Part shown: in pieces, positions 4,593-15,166 of the stretch
How the letters are laid out: every line of letters begins with the position of its first letter
Position numbering within the stretch: the stretch's first letter is position 1
From: a virus
Taxonomy: Duplodnaviria > Caudoviricetes
Strand: one strand, 5' to 3'
Length of the DNA: 28,589 nt
Virus record (IMG/VR): IMGVR_UViG_3300037422_000398
Coordinates: 1-28,589 of that record
Program-made: the position numbers and the translations under genes
The notes under the pieces: generated by a model
Database searches by the model: none
The model's input: only the letters and a program-made list of their open reading frames with translations
Told to the model about the DNA's origin: nothing

Positions 4593-5178
4593 GCCTGAAA
4601 CGACTTTCATCAATGCGGTCCACAAGAAGGTCAAAGCAAGTGGACCGCGACCTCACTTCGAGAAGATGCACAACCCGTACCGCGGTGGCACTGCGGACGT
4701 ATGGTACTCGGGCGAGAAGAGCGATCTGTGGGTGGAGTACAAGTGGATCACAGATCTGCCAGCCAGCGGGTACGTAGTACCCGACCTTTCCACACTGCAG
4801 CGCGACTGGTTAGATTCGCGATGGGCAGAGGGACGCCGTGTCTGGGTGGCCGTAGGCCACCCAGACGGAGTGCTTGTCGCCACAACTCCTACTGATTGGG
4901 GGAATGGGATGCATACGCACTGGTCCATCAGCCGCGAGGACTATGCGCGTTCACTCCAGGAGTTCGTAGGCCCATGCAAATCGTCAAAGGAATCCTCCAT
5001 ACCTCTCTCGCATTCAACGGCATCTACCGCTCCATCACAACAGCGGTCCTCATCGCGATCACGGTCTACTCGATCTACGACGGTGTCAGGGCCTTCAATA
5101 GGAGAAAAGATCATTGATCTGCTGGGAAACCAAAAACCATTTATCGTTGAAGTTCAACATCACCGTCGACGAAAATGA
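4582..5178 (+). CDS. PD-(D/E)xK nuclease (VRR-NUC/Holliday-junction-resolvase-like) with Ser-rich C-terminal extension
   Basis: PETTF...GGTADVWYSG...WVEYK...LSTLQRDWL...GRRVWVAVG; ATG 4582 overlaps the kinase end. Confidence 0.8.
   Translation: MSRKPETTFINAVHKKVKASGPRPHFEKMHNPYRGGTADVWYSGEKSDLWVEYKWITDLPASGYVVPDLSTLQRDWLDSRWAEGRRVWVAVGHPDGVLVATTPTDWGNGMHTHWSISREDYARSLQEFVGPCKSSKESSIPLSHSTASTAPSQQRSSSRSRSTRSTTVSGPSIGEKIIDLLGNQKPFIVEVQHHRRRK
4974..5117 (+). CDS. Small single-TM membrane protein (47 aa) nested in the nuclease ORF tail
   Basis: MQIVKGILHTSLAFNGIYRSITTAVLIAITVYSIYDGVRAFNRRKDH; AGGAG upstream; ATC/GTC/TAC-type codons; TTGA-coupled to the next ORF. Confidence 0.55.
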   Translation: MQIVKGILHTSLAFNGIYRSITTAVLIAITVYSIYDGVRAFNRRKDH

Positions 5179-5443
5179 GCTCTACTTCCCGAAAGGATTC
5201 CCGATCGAAGTTTTCCTCGCGCGTGGCGTTGAAACGCAGGATCCGCTCGTCATCGAGCTCGGAGTCCACATCGCAAGTTACCTTCTATCGGGACGAGGTT
5301 TCAGCTTCAACGGGTACGAAATACGAGACACCGTGGACTATCTGCCGTGGTTGGCGGAACTACGAAGTCTTCTACTTGGGGGAACCACAATTCCAACTCG
5401 ACGATTCCCTCGTCGTGCGCCCCGAGACCGCGACGGTACCTGA
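5114..5443 (+). CDS. Hypothetical protein (109 aa)
   Basis: TTG start with AGGAG at 5100-5104; typical codon usage over the first ~75 codons. Confidence 0.55.
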   Translation: MICWETKNHLSLKFNITVDENELYFPKGFPIEVFLARGVETQDPLVIELGVHIASYLLSGRGFSFNGYEIRDTVDYLPWLAELRSLLLGGTTIPTRRFPRRAPRDRDGT

Positions 5444-5648
5444 CTTCATTAAGGAATTGATCGTCGGCGACCTCGTACGCCGCAAGATGCTCGGCGTACA
5501 TGACCCGGGCATAAAAGAGATCATGAAACAAGAGATGGTAAAGTTGTGGGCAGACCGATTTGACGAGACCCTCTTCGAGTCTCTAACCAAACCCATGGAG
5601 CAACTGCTTCAAGCACAAGGAGGGCTTCCACTTGTGGATCCTGACTAA
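5175..5648 (+). CDS. Hypothetical protein (up to 157 aa; true start uncertain)
   Basis: ATGA-coupled to the nuclease stop. The C-terminal ~100 codons look coding and are the only + strand ORF covering 5444-5631. Confidence 0.55.
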   Translation: MSSTSRKDSRSKFSSRVALKRRIRSSSSSESTSQVTFYRDEVSASTGTKYETPWTICRGWRNYEVFYLGEPQFQLDDSLVVRPETATVPDFIKELIVGDLVRRKMLGVHDPGIKEIMKQEMVKLWADRFDETLFESLTKPMEQLLQAQGGLPLVDPD

Positions 5649-6228
5649 CACCAACCGGCTATTCTCATACGAAAACATGGAGAGCGCGGATATCGACATA
5701 GTCGACATCGCCCATGCCCTCGGTAATCAATGCCGCTTCGCCGGACACACCAACAAGTTCTACTCCGTCGCCGAGCACTCAGTGCTAGTCTCATCGCTCG
5801 TACCGCCCAAGTTCGCCCTGCAGGGTCTGCTGCACGACGCGCACGAGGCCTACATGACCGATGTGCCGACGCCGATGAAGCAGTGCTTGCCCGACTACGC
5901 GGCACTCGAACTCAAGGTCGAAGCGCGTTTGCGCTGGGCTCTCGGCGTTCCCGCGGAGTTCGATCCATGCGTCAAAGACGCTGACAGAGAAGCACTGTGG
6001 ATCGAGCGCGAGCAACTGCTTCCGCCGAACCCCGCTTGGGAGCGCCCGGAGTGGGAACGTCCGCCGCCGCGCATGTTGCCCGTCTATCTCAACTGCTTTC
6101 CTCCACACATCGCGAAGGCGGTTTTCCTGCAACGATACTACGACCTGACCATGGCGGCGAAGGGAGCTCCAAACTCCAAGGACGGGGTTCGATTCCCTGG
6201 CAGGTTGCCCGACACGGAGGCGGCATGA
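5632..6228 (+). CDS. HD-domain phosphohydrolase (YfbR/5'-deoxynucleotidase-like)
   Basis: DIAHALGNQCRFAGH, YSVAEHS, LLHDAHEAYMTD, VKDAD; GGAGG RBS before TTG. Confidence 0.9.
   Translation: MWILTNTNRLFSYENMESADIDIVDIAHALGNQCRFAGHTNKFYSVAEHSVLVSSLVPPKFALQGLLHDAHEAYMTDVPTPMKQCLPDYAALELKVEARLRWALGVPAEFDPCVKDADREALWIEREQLLPPNPAWERPEWERPPPRMLPVYLNCFPPHIAKAVFLQRYYDLTMAAKGAPNSKDGVRFPGRLPDTEAA
6142..6210 (+). tRNA. Degenerate, D-arm-reduced tRNA-Trp(CCA)-like element
   Basis: Acceptor GACCTG/CAGGTT; anticodon arm GGAG-CTCCAAA-CTCC; T arm CGGGG-TTCGATT-CCCTG; discriminator G, then CCC. Only 13 nt lie between the acceptor and anticodon stems. Confidence 0.6.
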
Positions 6229-6890
6229 ACATTCTCGATCACGGACACGTGCGTCTGTTCGAGCACATGGGCTCGGACCTGAGTGTCGTGCGCAATGCAC
6301 GTGTCAGCTACGACGCTGAATGGCGCGAGAGCGACGAGAAGAAGGACGAGAAGCTGATTCACTACCTCATGAAGAACCGACACACTAGTCCGTTCGAGGC
6401 GGTGACCTTCACCTTCGACATCAAGTGCCCGATCTTCGTCGCTCGTCAGTGGCACCGGCATCGCACCTGGAGCTACAACGAAGTAAGCGCCAGGTACGCC
6501 GAACTGCCGGAGGAGTTCTACGTACCGAATGCCTCGCAGATCACCACCCAGTCCCCGAGCAATAAGCAGATGCGGACCGATGTGCAGCATCCAGACGCGG
6601 AGCGTTTTAAGGCGTGCATCCAAGAGCAGTGCGCGGATTCGTTCTGGTTGTACAAGAACCTGATCAAGCACGGATGCCCGAGGGAACTTGCCCGCGGCGT
6701 GTTGCCGTTGAATACCTACACGCACTTCTTCGGCACCGTGGATCTCCACAATCTCTTCCATTTCCTCAAGCTCCGTCTTCATCCCCACGCACAGTACGAG
6801 ATTCGCGTGTACGCGGAAGCGATGCTCGATCTCATCGAGCCAATCGTACCTGTGTGCGTCGCAGCCTTCAAGGAGCACCAACTCGCATGA
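6225..6890 (+). CDS. thyX: FAD-dependent thymidylate synthase
   Basis: ARVSY, HTSPFE, RQWHRHRTWSYNEVSARY (RHRx7S motif), ELARGVLP, LRLHPHAQYEIR; GGAGG RBS, ATG 6225. Confidence 0.97.
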   Translation: MNILDHGHVRLFEHMGSDLSVVRNARVSYDAEWRESDEKKDEKLIHYLMKNRHTSPFEAVTFTFDIKCPIFVARQWHRHRTWSYNEVSARYAELPEEFYVPNASQITTQSPSNKQMRTDVQHPDAERFKACIQEQCADSFWLYKNLIKHGCPRELARGVLPLNTYTHFFGTVDLHNLFHFLKLRLHPHAQYEIRVYAEAMLDLIEPIVPVCVAAFKEHQLA

Positions 6891-7276
6891 AACTCTATGC
6901 GATGAAATAAAACGGGCTTTGGGTCAGGTGGAACTGGGGTTCGAATTCGATCTACGAGCAACTAAAAACGGAGCTCCGCTTGAGCCCAAGTAAGATGGAC
7001 ATGATCCAAGGGATCACGAAGGTCAAGTTCCAGAACCGACAGCTGGAGAACTACGGCGTGATTACGATCGACGGACTGAAGCCCTTCCATGGTCCGTGGA
7101 CGACGTTCTTTGCATGGAAGCCGGTGCAGTACAACGGTGGCGGTTGGGCGTGGCTCTGCCGCGTCGCGGTGCGAGAGATCTCGGTCCCGACTCCGGATCA
7201 CGTATCTCACACCGTGTTGATCGAGTACCGTCGCGTCGGGGACGTCGTGAAGGAGAAGATGCTTGGCAACGTATGA
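6887..7276 (+). pseudogene. Hypothetical gene interrupted by one in-frame TAA (6908-6910); the downstream part 6980..7276 is open
   Basis: AAGGAG RBS and ATGA coupling to thyX. MKLYAMK*NGLWVRWNWGSNSIYEQLKTELRLSPSKMDM... continues without another stop to 7276. Confidence 0.55.
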
Positions 7277-7484: not shown

Positions 7485-8094
7485 CACTCATCTTCAGGTC
7501 GGGAACAAGTTCAAGATCCCCGATGGCGATGTGCTAATCCACGCTGGTGACGCCACGCCGAACGGCCGGCTCGAGCACACGGCGCAGTTCGCCGACTGGC
7601 TGTCTCGCCAGCCCCACAAGCACAAGCTCTTCGTCGCTGGAAACCACGACTACGCGTTTCAAGTCCAGCGCGGATACGCCGTGCAGCTGATCGAAGCCGC
7701 TGGTGCCCGCTACCTGGAAGACAGCGGCGTGATAATCGACGGCCGGCTGTTCTGGGGCTCCCCGTGGCAGCCGGAGTTCATGAACTGGGCGTTCAACTTA
7801 CCGCGCGGCCCGGAGCTCAAGCGGCACTGGGACCTGATTCCCGAAGGGACTGACGTCCTGATCACGCACTCTCCACCGCTGGGCATACTGGACATGACCG
7901 ACCGGGGCGAGTACGTCGGCTGTGAAGATCTACGTGACGCAGTTCAGCGTGTGCGCCCCAAGCTGCATGTCTTCGGCCATATCCACGAGTCTCACGGGCA
8001 GGAGCGGCGTGACGATACGCTCTTCGTCAACGCCGCGATCTGTGACTCGCGGTATCGTCCCGGCAACAAGCCCCAGGTGATCGAGCTCAACTGA
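7462..8094 (+). CDS. Calcineurin-like metallophosphoesterase (239FB/MPPED-like)
   Basis: SDTH, HAGD, AGNHD, LITHSPP, HVFGHIHE motifs; AAGGAG RBS, ATG 7462. Confidence 0.93.
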   Translation: MKIVCVSDTHLQVGNKFKIPDGDVLIHAGDATPNGRLEHTAQFADWLSRQPHKHKLFVAGNHDYAFQVQRGYAVQLIEAAGARYLEDSGVIIDGRLFWGSPWQPEFMNWAFNLPRGPELKRHWDLIPEGTDVLITHSPPLGILDMTDRGEYVGCEDLRDAVQRVRPKLHVFGHIHESHGQERRDDTLFVNAAICDSRYRPGNKPQVIELN

Positions 8095-11000
8095 CCGCTT
8101 TCACCAACGGGCTCAACGGCGCGCTGCGCTCCAGGAGTCGCCCGATATCCTGGCCCGGCGCGCCGGCTACCGTCTGCGCCACGTCTATACCGTGGCCGAT
8201 CGTGGGGCCGGCAAAGCTCTGACCCGGCACGCCACCAGCAGCCGCGTCCATGAACGCTTCGTGCCCGAAGACGCCCGTACCCATCACTCCGGACTGCGCC
8301 ATACCTTTCATCAGCATGTCGATCGGGCCACCCAGAGGCTTACCAAGCAGGCTCGCCTTCATTGCGCCCATAGCCATCGCGATCGGGATGTACGTAGCGA
8401 TCATGGTCGTGGGAAGCGTGTTCCCATGCTCCAGTTCGTGGATGCCTCGCCGCAGAATCGTGTTCTGGAAGCTGAACGCGAACTGCTTCAGGTGGAAGAT
8501 CAGCTGCCACATCGGATCCGAACCCCACGTGGGGCGATGCGCAGCGTTCGGGCGCAGCACAGCGCCGTCCACGAACTTGTAGAGCGCGTCCTTTACCTTC
8601 GGGTCGCTTGTGTCGACGTGGTCGCCCGTCGGCTTGTAGCCCTCGAGCCCGAGCTCCTTCATGTACCGCTGGCTGAGCTCGCTGTCACTATTCGCGTGGC
8701 GGATGATGAACCGCTCGCCAGCTGCCACGGCCGCGATGCGCATACGGTCGTTCCAGATGCTCATCCCGTTCCAGCGGAAGAAGCGCTCGTTCACCTGCTT
8801 GAGCCACTTGCTCATGTACGGCCCAGAGTACACGTCGCCGAGCACGGCCAGCTGGAGCGTGTTGTCGATGATGCCCAGGTCTTCGGCCAGCTTGCGGCGC
8901 TCGTCGCTCTTCTCCTTACCGACCATCGCCATGCCCAGCCCGCGGAACCCTTCCGACAGCCCGGCCCAGGCTTCTTTCCAGTCACCGGAGCGGACCGCGA
9001 TCCCCATCGGGTCGACGATAGAGTTCATCAGCGCGAACGGCAGAAGCACGATGTTCTGGTAGGTCGTGAGCGCGTTGAACAACTGCCGTGCCTCACGGCT
9101 GAAGTTGTGGTTCAAAGTGCCCTCGAGTCCGCGCACGATCTTCGCCGCCCGGTCGATCTCGGCGCTGGTGGCACCCTCATCCCGGGCAGCCTTCATCGCG
9201 TTCCGGATCACCTGGCCCTGATTGCCGAAGCGCTGCGCGTACTCAGCCCGGTGCGCGGCCTGAATGATGTAGGTCGAGAGCGTATTCACCATGTCAGTGT
9301 CCATGAACTTCTCGAAGTCACGCACGTTGGTCTGGTTGATGAAGTCCAGCGTACGGCGCTGGATGTTCTTCAGGTACGGCGTGTAGCCGACATGGTGGTC
9401 GTTCTCAGCCAGGTTGATCTGGCCGTCCTTGTCGGTCAAGGCATGAAACACCTCGTTCGCCTCGCTCACGGTCATGTTGCCGTGCTGAAGCAACAGCGCA
9501 AGGAACTCCCGGCGCCCGGTCCGGAGCTTCGCCGGATCCCACGCGCGGGGGTAGTAGTCCTTGATGAACCCGAGCTCGACCTCGGTGATCTTGCCGGACT
9601 GGTCCTTGTCCAGGCGCTTCACACCCTTGGATTTCATGTACGCGTGCATGTCGTCCAGCAGCGTGCGCACACCGGACGCGATAGCTTGGGCCTCGGGCGT
9701 GTCCGCCGGCTCGTTCCGGATCAGGCTCTGCCACGCCTTAGCAATGGTCTCCCGCGAGGCGTTGCCGGTCAGCCGCGCAACCCGGTTCATGTAGATGGCG
9801 CGCTGCTTGTTCACGGCCTGAATGAACGGCAGATCGCCGCCCTGTTCCCGCTCTGCCTCACGGTAGAAGAGATCGGCGATGTCGGTCAGGGACTTGAACC
9901 CGATGCCACGCAGCTGATCGGTGCCGCTGGTGAGGATCTTGTCGCCCACGTCTGCCAACGGCTTAGCGACACGGTTGATCTTGTCCTTGAGGGTCTCGAG
10001 TTGCAGATCACGCAGCACCGCGCCCGCGGTGCTGGGCGTGTTGAACTTACCCTGGTCGAACGCCACGAGCAGCTGCTCGACCTTGTCCTCTTGGGACAGG
10101 ATACCCATCATGTTGCGGAAGAACTGCGCAATGCGCGTGAAGAAGTTGTTGGTCGCGGGCCCGAGCGTGAGCTTGCCCTCAGCCCAGAACTGATACGCGT
10201 AGGCCGCAGCCTCTTCGGGATCCTTCATCGCGTCTTCGATCGCCGTCGGGTGGTCCTTGAGCAGCCGCTTCAGCTGGTTCATCACGTACGGCTTCGATAA
10301 AGCTGACTTGATTTCTTCCCAGGTTTTCCGTTGCAGTTCATCAGCTTTGTTGAGGGTCGCGAATAGATCATGAATAGATTCGTGGCGAACCACGTTCATC
10401 AGGTTGCTGCCCACGCCGAGCCCGATGCTGATCAGGCGCTCCGTCGGGTTGTACAGCCCCGACCCACCGATCATGCGCACGAACTCCACCTTGATGTCCT
10501 TGCCGCGGCGCTTCACGATCTCCGCAATGGCTTTGTCCTTCTCCTCTTGAGTAAGCGTCGTCTGCGGGCCCCAGGCGAACTCAGCATTGCGGAAGCCCTT
10601 CTTGCGCGCGTCGAGCCACGCCGCAGATACCTGCTCCTTCAATTCCTTGACGGCCGCGATGAACTTCTCCTGTTCCGCTTCCGATAGTTTGTCCCAGCCC
10701 GGGGTCTCCGTCATGAACATGTCTTCATCGGCCGTGTTGCCGAAGACAGCGTCTTGGAGGCGGTACAGAACCTCCCGGCGCATTTCCCATTCCGTGTACG
10801 CCTTGTCGTCGTCCGAGCTCGGCTCGGGGTCCTTCATCAAATCGATAGCGCGCCGAGCCGCGGCGCGCACGAACGCGAACGACTTTTCAGGGGTGTTCAG
10901 CACGGAATAGTCGTCGTTGAGCACGACCTCATCGACGCGCTTGGCCCAAGCATCCGGCAGCTTGTCCGGCAGCACGTCGCCACTGGGCAGCTGCAGGCCC

Positions 11001-14000
11001 TTGCGCGGCTTCAGCTGCTCCATGTGCAGGACATCCAGCGTGCTCGCGAGAGCGTCTTGCTCGCTCATTCCCGCCTTCACGTTGTAGTTGTACTGAGTAG
11101 CGGCCATCAGGACGTGCTCGCCAGATACCGGGGCATAGCTGCTCATAGCCTTGGCCAGCGCCGGGTACTCTTCCCCGATGGCTTTCTGGATCTGCTCCGG
11201 GCTCATCTCTTCGACGGTGTACAGCGCGAAGTCAGGATCGCTGGCGCGCTCGACCATAGACTTTGCGATATCGCTCGGATACATCAGGGACAACTTCGCC
11301 ATCTGCCCCTTGTCGATCGCTTGGAACACCTGGTTCAAGACCTGGTCGCCAGTCATCTGCGCCAACAGATCCTTGATGATCGAGAACACACGCTCGAGCA
11401 CGCTGTCCTTGGCTTCCAGCTTCAGCTTGCCGGAGCGCCAGAACGAGTAGGCCTGCGCGAACATCTCCTCCGGGTTGAGCGTGAAGTACTCGGTGGCGAT
11501 GCCCTGATCTTTCAGGATCTGCAGCACTTGTTTCTTGATGTGCGGCTTGTTGGCCAGCTGCACCACTTGCTTGGCCACGTCTTTACCGTGGCGCACGGAC
11601 AGCGCCGACACAGCGACGTGCGCGATCTCGTGATCCGCCACTTCGTCTGCGTTCATGCCGGACGCCAGGATAGCGTCGAGCGTGCCGAGCCAGATAGTGG
11701 CCTCACCACCGATGATCTCGTTCGCGCCGCTCACATCCTTCTCAGCCCCCGGGGACCCCAAGACGTTGGCCAGCTTGCCGACGGTCTTGTCGATGCGGTC
11801 GATCAAGTTCTTGCGGAGCGTGTCGCTGAGCTCGTCCAGGCTGATCTTCTTGTTGCTGCCTTTCAGGTAACGGCCGAAGATGCTCTTGAACAGTTCGTTG
11901 GTCTCCGCACTGAGTCCAGACTGATCTTTCGGCGCGCCGCCCGGGTTACGTCGTTCGTCCCGGGCCCGGTCAGCACGCATCTCTTCGCGCACGACGCTCG
12001 GGATCAGCGGCTCGCCGGCTTCGAGCATGGCTTTCTCGGTGGCCTCGAGAGCGTCCGCGTCCATCTCCTCGATTTCCGCCACACCCGAGTCGCGCTTGCG
12101 CTTGATCGGACGGAACTTCGGACCGGGTTTGCGTGTAGTTACCGACGACGGTCCGGCAACCCGACGAAGAATTTCATCAACTTTTTGCGCGTCAGACATA
12201 CTCTTCAGCATTTTGGCCGTTCGCGCTTCGTCGGGCGAAAGCTGATATTGCCGCTGTTCGATCGCCTCGTAGTCGTACCAGGTGCCGGTCTCGGCGTCAT
12301 ACTCGACGCCCGGCGCGTAATCGTCGCTGACATCACCAATGCCCTCGACGTTCACGGGCGGGTTCTCCAGCGGCTGGCGCGGCATCTTCACACCCGGGAT
12401 CCCAGTGCTGCGCGCCTTGACGTCACCCCAAGTGAGTCCAGTAGCGCGGTCGATCAGCAGATCGTCACGCAGACCCGGGATCGACGTAACGTCGTCCCGG
12501 AGCCGCAGCCCGCCGAGACCCTCCATGAACATGCGCGCGATGAAGGCGCGCTTACTTTCCCCTCGATACGTCTCACCCAGCTTCTGCATCTTCTTGGCCC
12601 AGGTCTTCCAGATGCTCTCGGCCGACACGTTCACGGTCTTGCCCTGGTCGCCGACCTCGATAGAGAACAAGGTGGCCTTGCGCTTGGCGTCAGCCTCTTT
12701 GTCTCGGGTCTGGCCCTTGTCCTGAAGGGTTCGCATCTGAGCGAACTCGCTATCGGTGACGTCGAACTCGTTAGCCGGGATCCCGGTGTCCTCCATCACG
12801 AAGAACTGCTCGAGCACGTCGTCGTCAGACAAACGGTTGAGCAACTCCACGCGCTCGGCTAGCCGGCGGGTCTCAGCCAGGGCATTCGGCGTGACCAGCT
12901 GCCGGGCATAGTCGTACCGTGCCTGGGCCTTCGTCCTCTCCTCGGGCGTCTTCGCCGCCTCTACCGCAGCCTTGCGCTTAGCGACCTCCTCAACCGAGCC
13001 CTGCTGCCGGCGGTTGCTCAGGCGCGATGCAGCTTTGGCGCGCAGCCGCGCCGCCGTCGGACCAGCACTGTGGCCGGTCTGGCGCAGCATGTGGCCGACG
13101 CTCACGACCTTGCCGGTACGCTTGCCCTCTTGCCGGAGCTTGCGTGCTTCTTCCTTGCTCTCGAACGGCTCGTTCTCCTCACCAACGCGCCGGAAATGGT
13201 AACGGGCTTCCGGCGTCTCGTGCGTGGTCATCTGCGCTTCAGGCGCGTCGGGGTCGACGTCCGCATCGTCGTCGGACAACAGTACGCGCTCAGCGACCGG
13301 GACGGTCTTGTCCTTCCCGAGCTCTTTGCCATGCGCCTCCATGTAGTAGTTGAGCACGTCGTTCAGCTGCTCTTCGCCGCCGAACACCTGGGACAGCGCA
13401 CCGATCGCGGCCGCAGTCTGCGCCTTATCCTTCCCCAAGCCTTGGGTGATCAAGCGGTCGATCAGCCGACCGAGCTCCTCGGCGGCCTCGGGGTCGTTGT
13501 CCAGGTGCTCCGCGGCCTCGGGCACGACGCTCCGGCGCAGGACGCTGTTTACGTCGCTGGCGTCGAAGCTGGCGCGCGCCACGCGGCCCAGGCTGGACGA
13601 CAGGTTCGGCGAACCGATGGCGTTGGCCACTTGCTGGAACGTGGCGACCGGGTTGTCGAACATGCGGGTGAGGTTCGCGACGGCCTTGATGCGCTCGTCG
13701 CTTAGTTCCTGCTCCGCGCCGCCGGCGAGCGCCCGCGCGATCTGCCGCACGTAGGCGATCACTTGCTGGTTGCCCTGGTAGCCCTCTTTCAGGTTGGCGT
13801 TGAGTACCTGTAGCACGTTCTGGAACGTGGCTTCGGGCGTCTCGGCGCTGCGCTTCACGCCCTCCTGCGCGCCTGCGGCGACGCCTTTGGCCAGCGCTTT
13901 CCCTTTTGCCCACGCCTTCTCGAACTTCGAGACCACATCTGCAGCCACTTTCCCGGCGCGTGAAGCAAAGTGTGCGTTTGCCACCGCTTCTTGCGCCTCC

Positions 14001-15166
14001 GGGGAATCGAACGCGCCCTTAAACTTAGCGAGCGCCCTCTTTACTTCGGCGGTGGTCTCCGGATCCCTGATCATGGCCGCCGCCATATCGGCAGCGCGCT
14101 TGGCACGCGACACGCCGGCCGCGGTCAGCTTGCGGCCGAACTCGTAGGGGTCGTCGTCATAAAGCAACGGGTTGGCATCGCCAAGCTTCAGATCGACGGC
14201 TGAGTGGTCCGCGTCGTCCCTGACCTGGCCCGGGAAGGCACGCCTCACGAACTCGGCGGTGTTGCCACCCGTCTCGCGCGCGGCGTCGATCAGCCCCTTG
14301 GCGGCGCCGATCGGGCGCGTCGCCACTTGCATGCCGCCGCCAACGATGGCGCCGGATGCCGCCGCGTTCAGCATGCGGCTGGTGTCGTCCAACTTGTCGC
14401 GATTCGGATTCAGGTAGTCCTCGGCGGTGATCCCCGTGAACTCCTGCGCCCCCTCGGTCGCGGCCTCACTTAGCGCAGCGCGCGTGACGCCCTTGGTCAG
14501 CTGGCGGACACCAGGCACGCGGGCGAGGCCGGCGGGCACGAGACCCTCAAGCGCGCCGGCCACCACGCCCTTGGTGGTCGCCACTTTATCGCGGAGATCC
14601 ACGGGCTGAGCGGCCTGGGCCGGGTCTTGGTACTGCGCCAAGATCTGGTCGGCGCGCTCCATCGCGATGGCCGGAGCCGTGGCGCCAGCGTAGCCCCCGG
14701 CGAGCGCACCGGGCGGACCAGCAAGCAGCCCGCCGGCCACGCCGCCGGCCAGACCACCGGCGACCGAGGGCAACATGGTCGGTGCGCCTTGAGCGAAGGC
14801 ACCCTGGGCCCAGTCGATCGCGTCACCTACGCCGCCGATATCTTCGAGCTTCGAGACGCGCGGACCGAGCGCGTTGGCGTCCTCCATCGCTATCTGGGCA
14901 CGGCGCAGCTTCGAGCGGAACCGCTCCTGGTCGCCGGCCTTCTCAGCGGCGAGCGCCTCCGACGCCGACGACGCGGCTGACTGCCCCAGCAGGCCGGTCC
15001 GGAGCCCGCGGAGGACATCTGCAGACTTCGGGAACAGCGATTCCTGGAACGTCTTGTCGTCTACCGGCCTCGCTGGGGCACGCAGATCGATCGGCGCGCC
15101 CCCAGTGTTCGAACCGCTGACATCGAACGGATCCTTACTCGCGCGGTCGCGAAGGTCGATCGGCAT
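8087..15166 (-). CDS. Giant internal virion/ejection protein (2359 aa), polyvalent-protein-like, with two zincin-like HExxH modules
   Basis: Last gene of the late operon; AAGGA RBS; N-terminal glycine zipper; HEIAH...EEMFA and HESIH...EEAAA; helical C-terminal region with hydrophobic segments resembling podoviral ejectosome proteins. Confidence 0.8.
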   Translation of the reverse strand: MPIDLRDRASKDPFDVSGSNTGGAPIDLRAPARPVDDKTFQESLFPKSADVLRGLRTGLLGQSAASSASEALAAEKAGDQERFRSKLRRAQIAMEDANALGPRVSKLEDIGGVGDAIDWAQGAFAQGAPTMLPSVAGGLAGGVAGGLLAGPPGALAGGYAGATAPAIAMERADQILAQYQDPAQAAQPVDLRDKVATTKGVVAGALEGLVPAGLARVPGVRQLTKGVTRAALSEAATEGAQEFTGITAEDYLNPNRDKLDDTSRMLNAAASGAIVGGGMQVATRPIGAAKGLIDAARETGGNTAEFVRRAFPGQVRDDADHSAVDLKLGDANPLLYDDDPYEFGRKLTAAGVSRAKRAADMAAAMIRDPETTAEVKRALAKFKGAFDSPEAQEAVANAHFASRAGKVAADVVSKFEKAWAKGKALAKGVAAGAQEGVKRSAETPEATFQNVLQVLNANLKEGYQGNQQVIAYVRQIARALAGGAEQELSDERIKAVANLTRMFDNPVATFQQVANAIGSPNLSSSLGRVARASFDASDVNSVLRRSVVPEAAEHLDNDPEAAEELGRLIDRLITQGLGKDKAQTAAAIGALSQVFGGEEQLNDVLNYYMEAHGKELGKDKTVPVAERVLLSDDDADVDPDAPEAQMTTHETPEARYHFRRVGEENEPFESKEEARKLRQEGKRTGKVVSVGHMLRQTGHSAGPTAARLRAKAASRLSNRRQQGSVEEVAKRKAAVEAAKTPEERTKAQARYDYARQLVTPNALAETRRLAERVELLNRLSDDDVLEQFFVMEDTGIPANEFDVTDSEFAQMRTLQDKGQTRDKEADAKRKATLFSIEVGDQGKTVNVSAESIWKTWAKKMQKLGETYRGESKRAFIARMFMEGLGGLRLRDDVTSIPGLRDDLLIDRATGLTWGDVKARSTGIPGVKMPRQPLENPPVNVEGIGDVSDDYAPGVEYDAETGTWYDYEAIEQRQYQLSPDEARTAKMLKSMSDAQKVDEILRRVAGPSSVTTRKPGPKFRPIKRKRDSGVAEIEEMDADALEATEKAMLEAGEPLIPSVVREEMRADRARDERRNPGGAPKDQSGLSAETNELFKSIFGRYLKGSNKKISLDELSDTLRKNLIDRIDKTVGKLANVLGSPGAEKDVSGANEIIGGEATIWLGTLDAILASGMNADEVADHEIAHVAVSALSVRHGKDVAKQVVQLANKPHIKKQVLQILKDQGIATEYFTLNPEEMFAQAYSFWRSGKLKLEAKDSVLERVFSIIKDLLAQMTGDQVLNQVFQAIDKGQMAKLSLMYPSDIAKSMVERASDPDFALYTVEEMSPEQIQKAIGEEYPALAKAMSSYAPVSGEHVLMAATQYNYNVKAGMSEQDALASTLDVLHMEQLKPRKGLQLPSGDVLPDKLPDAWAKRVDEVVLNDDYSVLNTPEKSFAFVRAAARRAIDLMKDPEPSSDDDKAYTEWEMRREVLYRLQDAVFGNTADEDMFMTETPGWDKLSEAEQEKFIAAVKELKEQVSAAWLDARKKGFRNAEFAWGPQTTLTQEEKDKAIAEIVKRRGKDIKVEFVRMIGGSGLYNPTERLISIGLGVGSNLMNVVRHESIHDLFATLNKADELQRKTWEEIKSALSKPYVMNQLKRLLKDHPTAIEDAMKDPEEAAAYAYQFWAEGKLTLGPATNNFFTRIAQFFRNMMGILSQEDKVEQLLVAFDQGKFNTPSTAGAVLRDLQLETLKDKINRVAKPLADVGDKILTSGTDQLRGIGFKSLTDIADLFYREAEREQGGDLPFIQAVNKQRAIYMNRVARLTGNASRETIAKAWQSLIRNEPADTPEAQAIASGVRTLLDDMHAYMKSKGVKRLDKDQSGKITEVELGFIKDYYPRAWDPAKLRTGRREFLALLLQHGNMTVSEANEVFHALTDKDGQINLAENDHHVGYTPYLKNIQRRTLDFINQTNVRDFEKFMDTDMVNTLSTYIIQAAHRAEYAQRFGNQGQVIRNAMKAARDEGATSAEIDRAAKIVRGLEGTLNHNFSREARQLFNALTTYQNIVLLPFALMNSIVDPMGIAVRSGDWKEAWAGLSEGFRGLGMAMVGKEKSDERRKLAEDLGIIDNTLQLAVLGDVYSGPYMSKWLKQVNERFFRWNGMSIWNDRMRIAAVAAGERFIIRHANSDSELSQRYMKELGLEGYKPTGDHVDTSDPKVKDALYKFVDGAVLRPNAAHRPTWGSDPMWQLIFHLKQFAFSFQNTILRRGIHELEHGNTLPTTMIATYIPIAMAMGAMKASLLGKPLGGPIDMLMKGMAQSGVMGTGVFGHEAFMDAAAGGVPGQSFAGPTIGHGIDVAQTVAGAPGQDIGRLLERSAPLSPLVKAVS

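Follow-up and report, generated by a model that had tools for sequence, protein, structure and literature searches.

Why does the end of a phage gene for a predicted HD-domain phosphohydrolase look like a tRNA-Trp? The gene lies in a window of 28,589 nucleotides, the entire record of a linear virus contig (G000) with an estimated completeness of 39%. Around it runs a plus-strand series of nucleotide-metabolism genes assigned with Pfam and PHROG: exonuclease, dNMP kinase, HD phosphohydrolase, thyX and metallophosphoesterase. The HD gene (5632..6228) encodes a YfbR/ATU1052-like protein of 198 residues that belongs to PHROG 318 (E 4.8e-61); its Pfam YfbR-like match is weak and under the cut-off. 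Its model matches the ATU1052 fold (PDB 2gz4, E 1e-10, TM 0.75–0.77), with weak fold matches to YfbR and the Z-genome enzyme DatZ (E 0.07–0.08). The flavin-dependent thymidylate synthase gene thyX follows (6225..6890, plus strand; Pfam Thy1, E 9.6e-57), its ATG overlapping the HD stop at 6225–28. A Shine-Dalgarno-like motif for thyX (6216..6220, plus strand) sits within the final HD codons, mostly paired in our folding models; as its accessibility varied with the folding window chosen, we left it out of the argument.

The HD reading frame stays open across a tRNA-shaped sequence at 6142–6210, which we confirm as genuine. An earlier note on this DNA had described a tRNA-Trp cloverleaf with a reduced D arm here, and all of its arm coordinates agree with the sequence, including that of the Shine-Dalgarno motif close behind the terminal CCC. 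The acceptor-like 5' strand (6141..6148; sequence, alignment and folding) pairs canonically at 6142–47 with 6201–06 through five Watson-Crick pairs and G1-U72, leaving A6148 unpaired. It is followed by a 'D region' (6149..6162) of 13 nt (6149–61) plus G27, with neither U8 nor a D stem according to covariance alignments. The anticodon arm (6163..6177) has 4 bp, the anticodon CCA and a phage-type G31-C39 pair, judged from its sequence and comparison with other tRNAs. A43 and a 4-nt variable loop (6178..6182), delimited by a tRNA descriptor and phage tRNA comparison, lead into a T arm (6183..6199) of 5 bp, one of them G-U, with a canonical T loop in sequence, descriptor and covariance model alike. 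The acceptor 3' strand (6200..6210; sequence and codon frame) ends in the discriminator G73 (6207) and CCC (6208–10) in place of CCA. All of these parts are on the plus strand.

Set against a canonical tRNA, the element is uneven. Its acceptor has 6 of 7 pairs and G73, with CCC at the end; the 7-nt anticodon loop carries U33 and a purine at 37, and the T arm and loop are canonical. The D arm fails on U8, A14, G18G19 and A21: the region is 13 nt long, has C8 and no stem, and retains only a GG. In its anticodon loop the element is identical to 31 bacterial tRNA-Trp genes, among which neither that loop nor G73 varies, as expected of tRNA-Trp descent. Several features were absent from the earlier description, among them the stop-start overlap with thyX and the codon details given below. 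The element is mismatched at 7:66 (A6148/G6200) and 27:43 (G6162/A6178), and an extra pair, C6141-G6207, which also appears in the cmscan alignment, extends the acceptor to 7 contiguous pairs.

The element is also protein-coding throughout. It starts at a codon boundary, at D171, and spans 23 codons, and its terminal CCC is an in-frame proline codon for which CCA would be synonymous. The acceptor 5' strand itself encodes D171-L172, the conserved end motif of HD proteins. Reading on through the element beyond this motif adds a tail of 26 residues, close to the estimate of about 25 made when the element was first described.

The tRNA likeness exceeds what chance would readily supply. A generic tRNA descriptor found a single site in the window, the element, whereas among 300 windows simulated with a third-order Markov model 12 held any loose match and one a match as good. 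Applied to 251 fetched loci (1.64 Mb), a looser descriptor gave 13 matches, all of them full-length tRNA shapes with D regions of 18–25 nt. Our phage-trained covariance model, R1, scored the element at 46.9 bits and the next site at 8.5, figures that are partly circular because its training tRNAs were picked for 13 bases common with the query. R2, built as its replacement from 31 bacterial tRNA-Trp genes (the 76-nt ones of 38 distinct) not selected for stem likeness, still lifted the element above background, at 21.1 bits (E about 0.001, a rough value) against 11.1 for the next best site. The best BLAST matches in phages fell on annotated tRNA genes, tRNA-Trp in 29 of the 30 listed, but with E values of 1–4.

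A resemblance arising by chance within GC-rich coding sequence would fit the failure of every standard threshold. ARAGORN and RF00005, both named as checks in the earlier note, returned 0 genes in the window and no match at E ≤ 10 (family cut-off 29 bits), respectively. Rfam scanning of the whole window gave no match at the element, and scanning of a 161-nt slice gave tRNA-Sec (18.6 bits, cut-off 47) and mascRNA, all sub-threshold. ARAGORN with lowered thresholds was uninformative, giving 15 matches at 85% and a different fold at the element. The fold z-score, -0.75, likewise suits coincidence. Against these stand the single equal among 300 simulated windows, the lead of the R2 score over the next site and, for all their E values, BLAST matches that fall on tRNA genes. 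The Markov windows and the R2 score largely refute chance likeness, whose probability we put close to negligible, and descent from tRNA-Trp appears real on the sequence evidence.

The likely donor, by sequence comparison, is a tRNA-Trp gene of the phage type. Viral loci with the same anticodon arm numbered 31, of which 23 were tRNA-Trp genes by ARAGORN, one more looks intact and seven were chance matches; the element's 4-nt variable loop recurs in 17 of these 24 tRNA-Trp genes. All 38 host tRNA-Trp genes compared, drawn from two phyla, lack G31-C39 and match the element at only 2–3 of the 8 bases at positions 66–73. G1-U72 together with G73 is found in 2 of 15 intact phage tRNA-Trp genes, and many of the phage genes for tRNA-Trp lack an encoded CCA. 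Intact phage tRNA-Trp genes score 34–67 bits with R2; the element, at 21.1, lies beside the tRNA 3' halves of related phages (21.7 and 22.1). The element's acceptor was found in no tRNA-Trp in viral contigs (0 matches) or in the genome contigs searched, and these searches yielded neither a donor tRNA nor an empty site. Two phage loci met along the way are worth recording. One (L271:673-747) is a tRNA-Trp in a tRNA cluster that ARAGORN missed, with A8, an odd D arm and 34 bits with R2. The other, in a 389-kb phage (L011:1338-1548, on the same record as L285), holds two different tandem tRNA-Trp(CCA) genes, one U31-A39-like and one G31-C39, the second of which carries the window's anticodon arm.

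The two ends of the element differ in character. All nine codons of 6136–6162 are the preferred ones in this phage, and 6142–6162 has a codon adaptation index (CAI) of 1.0, reached by 317 of 7422 seven-codon windows of this phage's genes. The 48 nt from 6163 to 6210 look foreign: their CAI is 0.39, with values as low in 162 of 7251 sixteen-codon windows, an argument weakened because gene ends in this phage vary widely (0.34–0.84 in 19 genes). In the AlphaFold model of the HD protein the last helix spans residues 158–178, and pLDDT falls from 89 at residues 171–180 to 54–56 at 181–198. Codon 178 begins at 6163: where codon usage changes, the anticodon stem starts to pair and the last predicted helix stops, a helix that the preferred codons of the 'D region' complete.

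Comparison with other HD proteins divides the tail in the same way. Neither D171 nor L172 varies among the four closest sequences. Among 83 aligned homologues (out of 120 listed, of 6912 found), the tail after the motif has a median of 7 residues against 26 here; it is 12 residues or fewer in 65 of the 83 and at least 26 in one. Minus the 16 codons of 6163–6210, the HD tail would be 10 residues long, and the three closest homologues among the matches listed (57–64% identity) have tails of 11–12 residues, unrelated in sequence. These three proteins come from contigs of 8,604 bp (P0002), 5,764 bp (P0004) and 1,011 bp (P0003). Damage to the tRNA is distributed just as unevenly. The structural defects at 7, 8, 9, the D arm and 27 are in the 5' part, and the 3' part, with A76 to C as its only change, shows nearly no decay; every defect except CCA to CCC is located in, or paired with, the 5' 21 nt.

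Because the codon break, the helix end, the tail length and the clustering of defects coincide, we place a join near 6162/6163 and infer that the element comprises a native HD 5' part (6142–6162) and a tRNA-Trp 3' part (6163–6210). The last 26 HD codons would then include a phage-type tRNA-Trp gene from which the 5' third is missing, joined in frame by recombination to the native HD end, and U8 and the D stem would be missing because 6142–6162 is HD coding sequence. The join could have been a 48-nt insertion into the tail or a deletion fusing HD to a tRNA gene formerly behind it, two routes that the data do not distinguish. The ribosome would read through the remnant, add a predicted disordered tail and end on the thyX ATG, so translational coupling would have been kept and the remnant tolerated. 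We give this account, in which the end of the HD gene carries an in-frame tRNA-Trp 3' fragment that is likely inert as RNA, an even chance of being correct. The earlier note's suggestion of a phage tRNA absorbed into a coding sequence holds insofar as tRNA-Trp sequence is part of the HD gene; in place of its whole cloverleaf with a reduced D region, we favor a 3' fragment.

The acceptor helix counts against a fragment, since it is good and the folding model has it form. Pairing of this quality arises with a random 3' strand in 7–9% of trials, and 7 contiguous pairs arise by chance in 0.6%, a test chosen after the extra pair had been seen. Pairing with the D-L codons would be a coincidence, or a short likeness that guided the join; later adaptation of the acceptor 3' strand is also a fair rival. 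Another point against a fragment is that R1 and R2 both align AUGG to the D-loop GG with a single deletion of 5–6 nt over the 5' D-stem strand. The near-absence of decay in the 3' part fits a recent event, but fits selection as well.

As RNA, the element would perform poorly. Its best fold is a long hairpin in which the anticodon arm and the T arm pair with each other; the cloverleaf lies 6.7 kcal/mol higher, whereas 15 intact phage tRNA-Trp cloverleaves lie 0–4.9 kcal/mol above their own best folds. The acceptor helix, with a pair probability of 0.78–0.90 in context, is the sole cloverleaf helix to form in the folding model; the anticodon and T stems have pairing probabilities of about zero. 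Lacking U8 and a D stem, mismatched at 7:66 and 27:43 and unfavored as a cloverleaf, the element is by these models a poor tRNA, and it is likely inert as RNA. A study of RNase P describes contacts with the acceptor and T stems, the remainder being dispensable for binding; it also describes reduced cleavage when stacking is impaired, and a contact with the 3' RCCA (PMC11221534). Both the acceptor/T stacking and the RCCA contact are impaired in the element.

These properties bear directly on any present function. A working D-armless tRNA-Trp, or a decoy offering its anticodon loop to a host tRNA nuclease, would draw on the exact anticodon loop, G73 and T loop, and on the precedent of the many phage tRNA-Trp genes that leave CCA unencoded. 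We nevertheless rate this as extremely unlikely. U8 and the D stem are missing, and two junctions are mismatched; the D arm holds the tRNA in its L shape and contacts the ribosome, according to PMC10424219. The near-zero probability of the anticodon stem counts against tRNA and decoy alike, and between 3000 and 8200 we found 0 promoter-like sites where 1.6 were expected. A decoy whose loop equals the host loop would, moreover, presumably not escape the nuclease. The mimic functions that the earlier note had entertained thus gained no positive support, given the energy of the cloverleaf and the failure of any relative among those searched to keep the element or the tail.

The 6–7 bp of acceptor pairing keep two further rivals in play, a whole decayed tRNA and a processed mimic. 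A whole phage tRNA-Trp of 74–75 nt may have overlapped or been fused with the HD end at the six bases of the D-L codons, with later loss of 5–6 nt of the D stem and of its CCA, leaving a pseudogene that HD reads through. The acceptor pairing makes this a fair rival, as does the single deletion with which AUGG aligns to the D loop, and subtracting 5 from 74 leaves 69 nt, a length divisible by three like that reported for nested tRNA-Sec (PMC8124441). It would, however, require extra changes confined to the 5' part, at 7, 8, 9, 21 and 27, and these would have had to yield only preferred codons and an unbroken helix; no tRNA-Trp with the element's acceptor turned up among the viral contigs scanned. 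We regard whole-tRNA decay as possible but on the unlikely side.

Selection for a tRNA-like processing signal is unlikely. Host RNase P and a 3' nuclease would cut at the acceptor and T helices, yielding a non-stop HD mRNA that lacks the last helix turns and a free thyX mRNA with its Shine-Dalgarno motif intact, in line with the proposal made for tRNA-Sec inside selB. The layout is that of selB-selC, with a start at a codon boundary, a length that is a multiple of three, a CCN proline end and a stop overlapping the next start. The T arm and loop are intact, the stems that RNase P is described as contacting are both present (PMC11221534), and an acceptor 3' strand unlike that of any tRNA-Trp found would fit adaptation to the HD codons. 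Yet an A-G mismatch sits at the very junction where impaired stacking is reported to lower cleavage, the RCCA bound by RNase P is missing (both PMC11221534), and the T stem has a probability of about zero in the folding model. Nor is there conservation in the loci searched: the T-loop motif is absent from the 110 nt upstream of thyX in all 80 loci examined once one flagged row (L116), an artefact of slicing, was set aside, R1 found no such element at the gene end in 89 HD loci, and a protein search with the tail alone returned only HD itself, a weak result since the method needs common 5-residue words. A specific version, in which a D-armless mimic takes conserved HD codons as its 5' strand and a 3' strand adapted to pair with them, is quite unlikely; an RNase P cut inside HD would then switch off the nucleotide phosphatase and release thyX mRNA.

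Could the fragment instead be an attachment site, the 3' part of tRNA-Trp retained from an integrating ancestor as a relic attP core? Three relatives carry a tRNA 3' part, likely an attP, at the junction of an integrase-like gene and the large virion gene: G001 (L253:1489-1572), G002 (L254:1498-1563, minus strand) and Acidovorax phage AP1 (L252, about 49098-49160, minus strand). The pieces derive from tRNA-Lys, tRNA-Val and tRNA-Leu, respectively, as read from their loops; the integrase is annotated in AP1 only and predicted from motifs in G001 and G002. In these last two the tRNA piece comes directly after thyX, the AP1 piece includes the whole anticodon arm as the window element does, and the element scores as these pieces do with R2. 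Host sequences speak against it. No genome among 185,579 matches the element's arms exactly, and its anticodon arm is absent from all 401 genomes examined in one class of proteobacteria. Five matches to the 3'-end pattern in genome contigs are not tRNA-like, and positions 66–73 of the 38 host genes diverge as described above. The contig as recovered shows no integrase, including at the corresponding junction (8087–8094), and the element precedes thyX rather than following it. The att-like core proposed in the earlier note thus found no match to host tRNA-Trp in the genomes searched; on sequence grounds a host attP origin is unlikely, and we consider the relic reading very unlikely overall. The window phage may be a lytic member of its group, or its integrase may lie elsewhere.

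The element stands alone in the material searched. An HD search of viral contigs gave 10 loci, none close, and alignment searches with HD in viral and metagenome contigs (31 of 64 and 17 of 64 parts) gave identities of 36–53% among the best 80 in each; thyX reached at most 73% among the best 80 of 304. Searches for the HD end motif and, as a guide to an orthologous locus, with the large virion gene gave 0 matches each, a plasmid search gave one weak match, and HD is absent from five related phage records. Patterns of the element found 1, 0 and 31 loci in viral contigs, none combining a short D region with intact arms, and 0 and 5 in genome contigs, the five by chance. In the parts covered, the HD, thyX, virion-gene and pattern searches thus found no orthologous DNA locus, and they found no second copy of the element. 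A 90%-cluster variant of the kinase next to HD (P0125) nonetheless indicates the existence of a sister strain. A literature search, poor in subscription journals, found no publication describing a leftover tRNA within an HD gene of a phage. At one locus from these searches (L125:3020-3111), a stretch of about 92 nt that resembles a tRNA, with its loop of TAT type and its variable arm long, lies 1 kb upstream of an HD gene.

The closest known arrangement is that of selC (tRNA-Sec) and its remnants in Alphaproteobacteria, which lie within the 3' end of selB. According to Mukai 2021 (PMC8124441), the nested tRNA has a length that is a multiple of three, a processing model is offered as a hypothesis, and some lineages keep tRNA-Sec remnants with shorter selB extensions. 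As in selB-selC, the element's tRNA sequence lies in the sense strand of an ORF 3' end and is translated as a C-terminal extension, with the same length rule, proline end and overlapping stop. Unlike it, the selB-nested tRNA is described as whole, conserved in many species and functionally tied to its host gene (PMC8124441). The element is a single phage case, concerns Trp and has no D arm; its first codons belong to a conserved protein end, and no functional link joins a tRNA to the HD phosphatase. It thus shares with a nested functional tRNA the in-frame position at an ORF end and the stop coupling, without being a whole tRNA. At most it works like a selB-type remnant, and it falls outside both RF00005 and the attP cores.

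Other comparisons delimit it further. With phage tRNA-Trp(CCA) genes, members of RF00005 (L260-L289), the element shares the anticodon arm, short variable loop, T arm and G73, and with some of them G1-U72. In contrast, all 15 distinct intact phage tRNA-Trp genes have a D region of 18–20 nt, none of those compared has its acceptor, and they score 34–67 bits to its 21. Like the attP pieces of the tyrosine-integrase phages AP1, G001 and G002, which belong to the same phage group by head-closure protein (26–37% identity), it runs from the anticodon arm or loop toward the CCA end. Those pieces adjoin an integrase-like gene and end in CCA, whereas the element lies inside a coding sequence in a contig with no integrase found and no host tRNA-Trp match. 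Animal mitochondrial tRNA-Ser(AGY) is D-armless yet conserved and charged, and is served by adapted mitochondrial factors. A short loop replaces its D arm and the other three arms are present, as in the element, which differs in bearing no sign of conservation or use.

As the likely remnant that we favor, the element would be a small, clean example of tRNA sequence turned protein-coding: it keeps the reading frame, has no stop, is coupled to the gene that follows and escapes both ARAGORN and Rfam. Its main interest would lie in annotation and in assessing other 'D-armless' tRNAs of phages, whose foreign part codon usage and a protein model can reveal. Processing of the element, if it occurs, would bring phages under the proposed selB-selC model of nested-tRNA control and supply a short construct for testing that model. 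A D-armless mimic, if true, would act as a switch of tRNA shape within a phage operon for nucleotide metabolism.

By head-closure protein, G000 is 37% identical to AP1, and its identity with the F116/H66 group is 28%. Its relative G001, complete at 66 kb, shows a different arrangement around thyX: HD is absent, a gene resembling ORF 4896–5117 by eye directly precedes thyX, and the slot corresponding to 5114–5648 is empty. Because G001 lacks HD and its 4896–5117-like gene adjoins thyX, the sequence from 5114 to 6224 looks like accessory DNA. The G000 sequence is present in one freshwater metagenome DNA run, possibly its source, and in no RNA run among the sequencing runs searched; a Logan contig of run X1 shows 0 differences from the window over 5400–7000 and may come from the same sample.

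Other features of the window deserve mention. Between the membrane-like ORF 4896–5117 and HD, 5114–5648 holds two short ORFs that match neither Pfam nor PHROG. Upstream of its ATG, the thyX frame stays open for 76 codons, back through the tRNA remnant as far as 5997 (5997–6224); we considered an HD-thyX frameshift fusion from this open frame and dropped it, as nothing else supported it. On the minus strand, 8087–15166 encodes a virion protein of 2359 residues, with PHROG family matches in its C-terminal third only.
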